From assembly GCA_963826865.1 (NCBI GenBank), contig CAWGYQ010000007.1:103725-167724 (forward strand): 64,000 nt of DNA, in the 5' to 3' direction. The notes beneath the pieces were generated by a model. The model was not told the DNA's origin and did no database searches. It worked only from the letters and a program-made list of their open reading frames with translations. Within the stretch, counting starts at the first letter, position 1, and the number at the start of each line of letters is the position of its first letter. Below are positions 20,692 through 22,806 of the stretch, one piece after another. The stretch comes from an uncultured Acidobacteriota bacterium (GTDB lineage: Bacteria > Acidobacteriota > Vicinamibacteria > Vicinamibacterales > CAVPJW01). Position numbers and translations under genes: made by a program.

Positions 20692-22806
20692 CTAGTTGAC
20701 GGCGGACGGTCCCGGCTTCGGCTCGCCCTTCAGCCCGGCAATCTGAATCGTGGGTGCCGGCGCTGCTTCCTTGAGCACGTGCTGGCGATAGAGTTGCGCC
20801 ATTCGGCTGTGGTGGGCACGGTCCTTCATGTCGTGCTCGAGGCCCTGCTCGTGCTCCCGCGCGCGCGCCTGCATCTTCTCCTCGCGCGCGTTGCGGGCCA
20901 CGCCGGCCAGCACGAGGTCCTGCTGTTCACCCTGAGCCACGGCCACGGGATCGAGCGTCAGCGAATGAGTCGTCGTCGAGAGCGGCACGCTCTTGTTGCC
21001 GGCGAAGATCTCGTGACGGCCGTGCTCGTCGTACCACTTGGTGAGCGTCGCCGTCATGTGCATCTTCTCGATGATATTGCGCCAGCCGATGCCCGTGTTG
21101 TAGGCGCAGAAGGAAATCTCGCCCATCTGCGTCGCATACGGGATGATGCACATCTCCGTGCGCCGGAAGTCGTAGTTGAACAGATCCTGGAACCACATGC
21201 CGGCCACGAACAGGAAGTTCCAGCGATCAGCACGGCGCTTGTCGATGTCCTGCTTCGTGCGATCGCCCTCGACCCGGCCGTAGGCGCCCGACTGCGCCTT
21301 CTTGGTCGCCCCGAAGGTCTTGTCGAACTTCTTGAGCAGGTCCATCAGGCGAAAGTGCGTCGGCGCCTTGAACGAGTCGTAGTTGCGCAGCAGCGACAGG
21401 GTCATTCCCGCAATCGACAAGGCCCGCCCGCGGCCCGCGTCGTTGACCTTGGCGAGATCCTTGGCCAGCCGCTCGGCGTTGAGGAAGGCGGTGACGGGAA
21501 CCGCCTCCTTGGTTTCCTTGTCGATCATGAGCGCCATGCCGATGCCGCAGTTCGGGTGGCAGCCGCACGTGAGCTGTCCCCAGCCTGCGTCCGGCCCATG
21601 CACCTGATCGGCCCAGTCGGTGAAGGTGCCCATGAACGAGATGGGGAACCAGTCGCGAACGGGCTCGCCGAGTCCGGTCTGGTTCTTCACGTCGTGGGCG
21701 AGATGCGACAGCGTGTAGCGCTGCGCGTGGCGCCGCTCGTCGGTGATTTCCTCGTCGCGGCCCGTGAAGGACACCGGTTGAAACGAGAGGAAATTGATCT
21801 TCTTCGGGTTGTCGAGCGCGAACTCGATGATCCGCCCGACCTGCTCGTTGTTCACGCCGTTGACGATCGTCACGACTGGCACGATGTCGACGCCCGCGCC
21901 GTACAGGTTCTCGATCGCGCGCAGCTTCACGTCGAACAAGTTGCCCACGCGCCGGTGCGAGTTCGCGGCGTTCCCGATGCCGTCGAACTGCAGATAGGCG
22001 TAGCGCAGGCCTGCTTCGGCTGCGGCCCTGGCGAACTCGGGACTCTTGGCGAACTCGATGCCGTTGGTCGCCGCCTGGACGCTGTTGTAGCCCACTTTCC
22101 GCGCGTAGCGGACGGCGTCGAGGAAGTAGGGAGAGAGTGTCGGCTCGCCACCGGAAAACTGCACCGACATCTGCCGCTTCGGCTTGATGCTGATGGCGTT
22201 GTCGAGCACCTGCTGGATGTCCTCCCAGCTCAGCTCGTGCACGAAGCCCACCTGATTCGCGTCCATGAAGCAGGGATCGCACATCATGTTGCAGCGGTTC
22301 GTGAGGTCGACCGTGAGCACCGAACCGCGTCCATGCTTGATGGTGCTGCTGCCATGATTGTGCAGCGTCGCGTCGTTGTGCGCGCGGATGTCGCGTCCCG
22401 GAAAGACCTCTTCGAGGTGCTTGAAGAACGCCGTGTCGATCGCCATGACGTCTTCGAAGTGCCCGTGGATCGGACAGTCCTTGACCATGAGAATCTGACC
22501 GTCGCGCTCCACGATCTGCGCCTTGATCTCGCCCACCTTTTCGCTGAGCAGGATTGAGACGTCCTTCTTGCCGTCCAGGATCTCCTGGCGCGCCTCACGG
22601 ACACACTTCGGACAGAGCGAGTCGGTTTCGCGGGGCCAGCCGAGCGGCGGCTTGGTCTTCTCCCACGATTTCTGGAGCGGCTTGTCGGACCAGGCCGGCG
22701 TGAACGCCGGCCTCGCGTTGATGCGGTTCAAGTCCTGGAAGACCGACCAGGCGCCGTTGGCGGCGAGGCTGAATCCCTTTTCCACGTACCTTGCTGGCGC
22801 ATGCAT
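20692..22806 (-). CDS. large multi-cluster radical SAM enzyme (COG1964-type; Tes/GDGT-MAS-like architecture)
   Basis: ORF 20692..22896. The likely start is ATG 22806, with AGGAG 14 nt upstream. Motifs: CPKC...DCPIHGH, CNMMCDPC (CxxxCxxC), SVQFSGGEPT, CGCHPNCG, MCIIPYATQMGEISFCAYN. Assignment to the Tes family is from memory of the architecture, not from a search. Confidence 0.8.
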   Translation of the reverse strand: MHAPARYVEKGFSLAANGAWSVFQDLNRINARPAFTPAWSDKPLQKSWEKTKPPLGWPRETDSLCPKCVREARQEILDGKKDVSILLSEKVGEIKAQIVERDGQILMVKDCPIHGHFEDVMAIDTAFFKHLEEVFPGRDIRAHNDATLHNHGSSTIKHGRGSVLTVDLTNRCNMMCDPCFMDANQVGFVHELSWEDIQQVLDNAISIKPKRQMSVQFSGGEPTLSPYFLDAVRYARKVGYNSVQAATNGIEFAKSPEFARAAAEAGLRYAYLQFDGIGNAANSHRRVGNLFDVKLRAIENLYGAGVDIVPVVTIVNGVNNEQVGRIIEFALDNPKKINFLSFQPVSFTGRDEEITDERRHAQRYTLSHLAHDVKNQTGLGEPVRDWFPISFMGTFTDWADQVHGPDAGWGQLTCGCHPNCGIGMALMIDKETKEAVPVTAFLNAERLAKDLAKVNDAGRGRALSIAGMTLSLLRNYDSFKAPTHFRLMDLLKKFDKTFGATKKAQSGAYGRVEGDRTKQDIDKRRADRWNFLFVAGMWFQDLFNYDFRRTEMCIIPYATQMGEISFCAYNTGIGWRNIIEKMHMTATLTKWYDEHGRHEIFAGNKSVPLSTTTHSLTLDPVAVAQGEQQDLVLAGVARNAREEKMQARAREHEQGLEHDMKDRAHHSRMAQLYRQHVLKEAAPAPTIQIAGLKGEPKPGPSAVN

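Follow-up and report, generated by a model that had tools for sequence, protein, structure and literature searches.

The window analysed here, a 64,000-nt stretch of contig CAWGYQ010000007.1 from an uncultured acidobacterium of the Vicinamibacteria, contains a single copy of a gene for a 704-residue radical S-adenosylmethionine (SAM) protein, located on the minus strand. By profile, sequence and fold, the closest relative of this window protein is the archaeal tetraether synthase Tes, also named GDGT-MAS. It is not a canonical Tes, as one cofactor site is absent and its score lies below the curated cut-off for that enzyme. The coding sequence and the parts of the protein are the following (all on the minus strand):

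20692–22806, minus: coding sequence of the class II Tes-like radical SAM protein, 704 residues, start codon ATG 22806, stop codon 20692–20694
22720–22797, minus: clade-specific N-terminal amphipathic helix, residues 4–29 (helix in the AlphaFold2 (AF2) model; predicted local distance difference test score, pLDDT, 84–91)
22441–22635, minus: rubredoxin-like zinc-ribbon domain, residues 58–122 (Pfam PF23545, E 1.2e-13)
22312–22440, minus: cysteine-free linker, residues 123–165, in place of the archaeal [Fe4S4]N motif CX3CX2C..H
21817–22305, minus: radical SAM core, residues 168–330 (Pfam PF04055, E 2.6e-18)
21547–21567, minus: central CGCHPNC motif with C414, C416, H417 and C420 (superfamily alignments)
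21196–21198, minus: Met537, by alignment the counterpart of Met439, the labile [Fe4S4]C ligand of GDGT-MAS
21106–21150, minus: C-terminal cysteine pair C553...C567 (MCIIPYATQMGEISFC), counterpart of 'RCCIHYAT...PFC' of the M. jannaschii enzyme, assigned to [Fe4S4]C
20695–21006, minus: clade-specific charged C-terminal tail, residues ~601–704 (no Pfam match in a full-length scan)

Family, fold and extensions

Two Pfam domains are present in order and above their gathering scores, Zn_ribbon_HMPTM (PF23545, 50.8 bits, cut-off 27) at residues 58–122 and Radical_SAM (PF04055, 67.2 bits, cut-off 29.5) at residues 168–330, which places the protein in the family known as 'class D', IPR034474 or COG1964-type. 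The archaeal enzymes MJ0619 of M. jannaschii (PDB entries 7TOL and 7TOM) and MA_1486 of M. acetivorans have the same Pfam architecture. Among NCBIfam models, the Tes equivalog NF045702 ranks first; it aligns in a single stretch (residues 61–584 with model positions 2–483 of 486) and scores 313.6 bits, short of its curated cut-off of 450 bits. The sole strong sequence match in the PDB is GDGT-MAS (7TOL, E 9.1e-61), and the identity to archaeal Tes is about 31%. An AF2 model calculated from a 34-sequence alignment (pLDDT 82.7, predicted template modelling (TM) score 0.84) matches the four-domain GDGT-MAS fold over the whole chain: Foldseek matches this predicted model to 7TOM and 7TOL with E values of 1e-36 to 1e-34 and target-normalised TM scores of 0.86–0.87, over 553–559 aligned columns. 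The first-pass annotation, made from the letters of the DNA, had assigned the protein to the Tes/GDGT-MAS-type (COG1964-type) family, and the top NCBIfam model, the top PDB sequence match and the whole-chain fold match all bear this out.

The same searches bear on a peptide or cofactor maturase of the SPASM/twitch type. The protein does match NirJ, AhbC/D, MoaA, PqqE and SkfB models, but weakly: NirJ-, AhbC-, MoaA- and SPASM-type models reach at most 72 bits against cut-offs of 180–650, over the radical SAM core only (residues ~139–372). In the fold search, the next matches after GDGT-MAS are MoaA, SkfB and HydE, again confined to the radical SAM core, with a query-normalised TM score of about 0.25 against 0.62 for GDGT-MAS. 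The SPASM motif CX9–15GX4C...CX2CX5CX3C is absent, all 11 cysteines of the protein being accounted for otherwise, and a conserved small open reading frame (ORF) or partner gene was not found nearby. Profile and fold effectively refute a maturase of this type. An unrelated radical SAM subfamily at the head of the profile search, named beforehand as one outcome that would overturn the family assignment, was not seen. The second NCBIfam model, that of the TrsS (seleno)protein (NF045646), shares the N-terminal half (residues 93–378) with the window protein, which scores 210.5 bits against a 490-bit cut-off and has no match to it over the C-terminal auxiliary domain.

Compared with archaeal Tes, the window protein is extended at both ends, by about 60 residues at the amino-terminus and by a charged tail of about 100 residues at the carboxy-terminus. 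The N-terminal helix (residues 4–29) has a hydrophobic moment (μH) of 0.56, contains no transmembrane segment and has no counterpart in M. jannaschii Tes. Judging by the model, it may anchor the enzyme to the membrane surface. The charged tail, described in the first-pass annotation as following the last cysteine element, is indeed charged over residues ~601–704. Its column identity is 22–51% and it is a low-confidence part of the AF2 model, with a long helix predicted for residues 640–676 and conserved islands GIAKNAREEK and LYRxHVLKE. Around residues 652–670 (window ~20800–20850, minus strand), in the EHEQGLEH region, most clade members lack about eight residues that are inserted in the tail of the window protein. 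The ending ...FGD, kept in four of four Terriglobia/Blastocatellia orthologues examined (L033, L041, L046 and L061), is not present in the window protein.

Metal sites and three cofactor classes

M. jannaschii GDGT-MAS contains a rubredoxin-like iron site (C9X2C12X20C33X2H36), a surface cluster [Fe4S4]N (C73, C77, C80 and a histidine), the radical SAM cluster and a cluster [Fe4S4]C, ligated by three cysteines and the labile Met439 (PMC9433317; PMC13459092). The substrate C–S intermediate forms on [Fe4S4]C; the M439A variant retains activity, what the other cofactors do is given as unclear, and the enzyme binds bacterial phospholipids with ester linkage (PMC9433317). To place these sites in the window protein and its relatives, we used two superfamily alignments, one of 19 and one of 34 sequences, together with a motif table for 49 sequences; the numbering of Met439 is the PDB chain numbering minus a 20-residue tag.

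The window protein has 11 cysteines, each of them conserved in 100% of 79 clade members. They are distributed over the four cysteine-rich elements listed in the first-pass annotation, all of which were recovered: CPKC (C65 and C68) with DCPIHGH (C111 and H114), CNMMCDPC (C172, C176 and C179) with SVQFSGGEPT (residues 214–223), CGCHPNCG (C414, C416, H417 and C420) and MCIIPYATQMGEISFCAYN (C553 and C567). These four elements do not correspond one-to-one to the four metal sites of Tes, however, and in this respect the Tes-like layout proposed for them is not supported. The first element supplies the rubredoxin-like ligands (C65, C68, C111 and H114, equivalent to the CX2C...CX2H ligands of the M. 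jannaschii enzyme), invariant in both superfamily alignments. The second contains the radical SAM CX3CX2C motif (nt 22270–22293) and the SAM-binding GGEPT motif (residues 219–223); C172, C176, C179 and G219–T223 are all invariant in the 34-sequence alignment.

The central and C-terminal elements together make up what in Tes is a single C-terminal auxiliary site, here with extra cysteines. H417, the central histidine shared with archaeal Tes, is invariant in both superfamily alignments. C420 aligns with the lone cysteine of the M. jannaschii 'SSHQHCG', while C414 and C416 are additional, giving CxCHxxC where the archaeal enzyme reads SSHQHC; further on, the window protein has one cysteine where the archaeal enzyme has CC. 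The labile methionine is shared as well: alignment of the archaeal 'SCMHF' with 'AGMWF' in the window protein pairs Met439 with Met537, which is 100% conserved in the clade. C420, C553 and C567 fall in conserved cysteine columns of the class I proteins defined below. From this correspondence, C420, C553, C567 and Met537 are the putative [Fe4S4]C ligands, the choice of the three cluster-binding cysteines being read from the alignment.

The site that is missing is [Fe4S4]N. Where the M. jannaschii enzyme reads GCPYDCGLCPNH, the window protein reads the cysteine-free DATLHNHGSSTIKH; the N-cluster columns contain -HSK, against CCCH in class I, and the only C...C..C match in the whole protein is the radical SAM motif. 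The linker histidines H130, H143, H149 and H151 are invariant within the clade. The stretch found in place of the N-cluster domain is a low-confidence part of the model (pLDDT 56–59 at residues 141–160). The expected alignment of cluster ligands is thus borne out for the rubredoxin-like, radical SAM and C-site positions and fails for [Fe4S4]N. Loss of residues conserved in tetraether synthases had been named as evidence against the assignment, and it has occurred in part, in the missing N-cluster ligands and in the score of 313.6 instead of 450 bits.

When relatives are sorted by these sites, three cofactor classes are obtained (bits are to the Tes model, cut-off 450):

Class I: all four metal sites; M. 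jannaschii Tes and all 32–39% identity representatives except P0193; 447–593 bits
Class II: no N-cluster, C-site kept with an extra cysteine; the window clade, P0121 and P0135; 299–414 bits
Class III: neither auxiliary site kept; Terriglobus roseus WP_014786616.1 (P0136) and others; 239–251 bits

Across the classes, there is no variation in the rubredoxin ligands and little or none in the radical SAM motif, GGEPT, His417, Met537 and C567. A coarse neighbour-joining tree places class I apart from a bacterial supergroup of classes II and III, within which the sequences of the window clade group tightly at the end of a long stem. P0259, affiliated with class I, has also lost the N-motif, which has therefore been lost more than once. 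To judge from the alignments, the N-cluster is evolutionarily dispensable.

Class III proteins belong to the same N-cluster-free supergroup and are 41–44% identical to the window protein, with the rubredoxin-like and radical SAM sites kept. In the T. roseus protein, the positions of C414–C420, C553 and C567 are occupied by VAHA, S and S, respectively. The central and C-terminal cysteine ligands are likewise lost in P0148, P0193 and P0143, which, like P0136, keep the other two sites. P0136 comes from a cultured acidobacterium of subdivision (SD) 1, T. roseus DSM 18391. The ligand losses suggest that class III probably performs a different chemistry, free of auxiliary clusters.

Distribution and a candidate role in membrane-spanning lipids

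More than 8000 close homologues of the window protein were found. An exhaustive search of representatives returned 7278 family members at E < 1e-3 and 626 at E < 1e-30, and at least 593 stretches of species-representative genomes encode a relative. Locus statistics given here refer to the best 80 of these stretches, whose proteins are 73–88% identical to that of the window. Bar a few contigs labelled otherwise, they come from Vicinamibacteria, Terriglobia (Acidobacteriaceae/Korobacteraceae and Bryobacterales/Solibacter) and Blastocatellia, which we take to be subdivisions SD6, SD1, SD3 and SD4. Identity of at least 73% across acidobacterial classes points to strong purifying selection. The contigs L004, L012 and L014 and the proteins P0323 and P0339, at 80–94% identity to acidobacterial clade members, are labelled as Betaproteobacteria, 'uncultured proteobacterium', Bifidobacteriaceae, Bathyarchaeia and Verrucomicrobiae. 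Contigs of the clade with such labels are most likely mis-binned acidobacterial contigs.

Branched glycerol dialkyl glycerol tetraethers, or brGDGTs, form the basis of widely used palaeotemperature and palaeo-pH proxies, and the acidobacterial enzyme that joins their tails is still being sought. Subdivisions 1, 3, 4 and 6 are reported to make iso-diabolic acid, and no Mss was found in the Acidobacteria screened (Sahonero-Canavesi et al.). For Mss of Thermotoga maritima and Thermoanaerobacter ethanolicus, also a radical SAM enzyme, the joining of fatty-acyl tails to give (iso-)diabolic acids has been demonstrated. We propose the same conversion for the window protein, and a Tes-like auxiliary-cluster mechanism has been postulated for Mss. 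By its literature descriptions, Mss belongs to another radical SAM subfamily, tied to anaerobes; in the organisms with Mss, no Tes homologue was found. Zeng et al. (2022) counted 456 homologues of Tes in bacteria and suggested that they take part in brGDGT synthesis. Chen et al. and Halamka et al. built on this idea, and Ca. Solibacter usitatus Ellin6076 was shown to be a prolific brGDGT producer. Its two homologues, Acid_5929 (545 aa, 40.2% identical to MA_1486) and Acid_2410 (714 aa, 30.1%, E 4e-62), have both been published as candidate brGDGT tetraether synthases. For 6-methyl brGDGT producers, Chen et al. recommended looking among those Acidobacteria of SD4 and SD6 that have a Tes homologue. 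The tail-coupling hypothesis for bacterial Tes homologues is therefore legitimate and already published, in agreement with the first-pass annotation, which had put them forward as candidates for brGDGT and iso-diabolic-acid synthesis.

By homology with GDGT-MAS, we propose that the class II enzyme couples two lipid alkyl chains at their terminal carbons, using the mechanism of GDGT-MAS, in its case without [Fe4S4]N, and give this reading a probability of about 0.5. A C(sp3)–C(sp3) bond would link the terminal carbons of a pair of alkyl chains of membrane lipids, probably chains of the iso-C15 type, whose isopropyl terminus is the same as that of a phytanyl chain. The product would be membrane-spanning lipids of the iso-diabolic-acid type, the core of brGDGTs. 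In such a mechanism, the CX3CX2C cluster would reductively cleave SAM, and the 5'-deoxyadenosyl radical would take a hydrogen from a terminal methyl group. The resulting substrate radical would be held as a C–S adduct on the C-terminal auxiliary [4Fe-4S] cluster (C420, C553 and C567, with Met537 as labile ligand), until SAM is cleaved again and the other tail is activated; attack of this tail on the adduct would then form the C–C bond. Archaeal Tes differs from the window protein in its setting: the latter comes from a bacterial host with ester-linked or iso-branched lipids.

A point for the coupling reading is Acid_2410 of the brGDGT producer S. usitatus, which resembles the window protein in length and in its similarity to archaeal Tes. 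These lengths and the published identity figures suggest that the two are orthologous, and a Solibacter-labelled orthologue from a metagenome-assembled genome (MAG) is 76% identical to the window protein. More tentatively, and with somewhat less than even confidence, class II could be the enzyme, so far missing, that couples the tails of iso-diabolic acid and brGDGTs in Acidobacteria, working with two [4Fe-4S] clusters and a rubredoxin-like iron in largely aerobic soil bacteria.

Several observations weigh against coupling by class II, besides the missing [Fe4S4]N ligands and the sub-cut-off score. S. usitatus was selected for study because of Acid_5929, a class I protein that may be the true brGDGT synthase; unlike the window protein, this type keeps the N-cluster motif and passes the Tes equivalog cut-off. 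No cultured isolate could be placed in the clade: searches with the Korobacteraceae and Solibacter-MAG orthologues returned only MAG and metagenome sequences, 79–100% identical to the query, and the long contigs with close relatives are likewise metagenome assemblies. A conserved lipid-gene neighbour is lacking, as each neighbour family is confined to at most 11 of the 80 loci. T. roseus has a degenerate homologue of class III without the C-cluster cysteines. In the literature of 2025–2026, experimental confirmation is still said to be lacking for bacterial Tes homologues. Finally, Sahonero-Canavesi et al. detected Tes homologues in only 3 of 14 iso-diabolic-acid-producing Acidobacteria and proposed an alternative pathway. 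Their filter required E <= 1e-50 and at least 30% identity, and class II proteins are 31–33% identical to archaeal-type references; since the filter sits exactly where class II scores, the count is weak counter-evidence. For the single homologue of E. aggregans, the published BLAST statistics are compatible with class II and also with class III.

Much of the same evidence could be accommodated if class II were a Tes-family enzyme acting on lipid tails in another way, by cross-linking within or between spanning chains, by macrocyclisation or by some other modification, with coupling performed by class I (Acid_5929 type) or by an unrelated enzyme. S. usitatus has homologues of both classes; class II is a separate deep branch with altered cofactors and clade-specific extensions, its scores fall under the Tes equivalog cut-off, and the count of 3 of 14 producers would fit as well. 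On the other hand, the elements of C–C coupling (the radical SAM site, the C-cluster positions and the labile methionine) are all kept, the subdivisions with class II make iso-diabolic acid and are not known for abundant brGDGT modification, and the GDGT-modifying enzymes Gms and Grs belong to other radical SAM subfamilies (PMC13459092). We regard a different lipid-tail reaction as rather unlikely, though still deserving of serious consideration.

Whichever reaction it performs, the window protein departs from known Tes by its lost [Fe4S4]N site and its score, and poses the question of whether [Fe4S4]N is dispensable for C(sp3)–C(sp3) coupling. The class II clade is abundant and strongly constrained across SD1, SD3, SD4 and SD6, and sorting the acidobacterial Tes homologues into three cofactor classes gives a sharper target list. 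Surveys that pool 'Tes homologues' mix classes with probably different functions, and filters of at least 30% identity sit on the class II boundary, so that class II members may drop out of them. If class II is the coupling enzyme, it would provide a phylum-wide marker gene for brGDGT sources, and SD6 Vicinamibacteria would become candidate brGDGT producers in neutral and alkaline soils.

Flanking signals and gene neighbourhood

The earliest in-frame start of the radical SAM ORF is GTG 22896 (minus strand). We place the start at ATG 22806 because a database protein (P0001) of exactly 704 aa and 100% identity begins at its equivalent, as do all the orthologues, which start with MHKPIKY.... The ORF, counted from GTG 22896, has a G+C content at third codon positions of 0.88, the highest of the 46 called genes of the window (typical values are 0.77–0.85). 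It does not, therefore, look recently acquired, and its composition fits a native gene whose codon bias is strong. Two signals flank the gene:

20603–20638 (hairpin 20638–20613), minus: intrinsic terminator, ~55 nt past the stop codon
22902–22941, minus: candidate promoter/operator CTGGAAA-N27-TACTAT, overlapping the promoter-proximal copy of a 10-mer repeat

The terminator has an 11-bp stem, a 4-nt loop and a U-run, with a folding energy of -24.3 kcal/mol (z = -2.7). Together with the lack of a conserved neighbour, it agrees with the earlier description of a stand-alone gene with a strong terminator. The direct repeat noted in the divergent spacer is also present: the 10-mer TGGCGTTTCC occurs at 22930–22939 and 22947–22956 and nowhere else in the window, and two copies were seen in 0 of 100 shuffles. 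The second of these copies and the CTGGAAA box overlap. In relatives the exact repeat is not kept, and it was rejected as a conserved operator. A looser form of the promoter-like pattern, CTG(G/A)AAA-N24-29-TAnn(A/T)T, occurs in 11 of the 80 upstream regions (shuffle mean 0.05; 0 on the opposite strand), 45–150 nt 5' of the start codon in Vicinamibacteria-type relatives (besides the window, L001, L002, L006, L008–L011, L013, L022 and L032). Its spacing exceeds that of a standard sigma-70 -35/-10 pair. A known riboswitch was not found, the Rfam matches being sub-threshold only and on the terminator hairpin, and the leader fold is not significant (z = -0.45).

Convergent with the radical SAM gene are FolE and a secreted hypothetical protein, a flavoprotein gene is divergent, and PEP-CTERM, LON-N-domain and VWA proteins are also encoded nearby. 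This set of neighbours is common only to the 9–11 closest loci. Neither a second Tes-family gene nor other lipid-pathway genes were found in the window, and the deep class II representatives P0121 and P0135 lack lipid-gene neighbours too. The remainder of the window encodes housekeeping functions, among them thiolases, 3-hydroxyacyl-CoA dehydrogenase, the pyruvate dehydrogenase complex and ilv/leu genes.

Some of these neighbours bear on a non-lipid, small-molecule substrate such as a pterin or 7-deazapurine, in line with the original, now superseded '7,8-dihydro-6-hydroxymethylpterin dimethyltransferase' annotation of MJ0619, a name that JGI still propagates to many members of the family. GTP cyclohydrolase I (FolE) lies two genes off in Vicinamibacteria-type loci, and QueG is the divergent neighbour in about ten Bryobacterales loci. 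However, this proximity is lineage-specific and non-operonic; FolE is convergent and thus not co-transcribed with the radical SAM gene, and the shared theme of GTP-derived deazapurine/pterin metabolism (noted also at L084, 12155–14469, and L081, 8860–9828) is probably a coincidence. The pterin methylase assignment of MJ0619 was irreproducible; this protein has a narrow, hydrophobic lipid tunnel as its active site (PMC9433317), and the fold match to this lipid enzyme spans the whole chain of the window protein. A pterin or deazapurine substrate is thus very improbable.

FolE and the hypothetical protein of 215–222 aa beside it (window 16952–18330, plus strand) keep their convergent orientation towards the radical SAM gene across Vicinamibacteria-type loci, also at a protein identity of 64%. 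The hypothetical protein is Pfam-negative in the window and its amino-terminus resembles a signal peptide.

The divergent neighbour, described earlier as a broken flavoprotein gene, encodes a Pyr_redox_3 (YpdA/TrxB-like) protein at 23027–24036 (plus strand) and is indeed split over three frames: residues 1–129 in frame 2, 131–235 in frame 3 and 237–332 in frame 1. The shifts lie near 23408–23411 and 23727–23730, where no long homopolymer is seen. The gene is intact in L001, L002, L006, L008, L010, L016 and L022, and split in L009 and L012. An assembly indel is a more likely cause than a pseudogene, given that frame splits also affect several neighbouring genes. Iso_dh is divided between 13161–13799 and 13573–15435 (plus strand), with a complete thiolase joined in-frame to its C-terminal half. 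In the window, the VWA protein appears as two ORFs (24669–26206, minus strand), while it measures 441 aa in the relative L082, and the upstream minus-strand gene (25677–27889) consists of three overlapping ORFs, each with a match to relatives.

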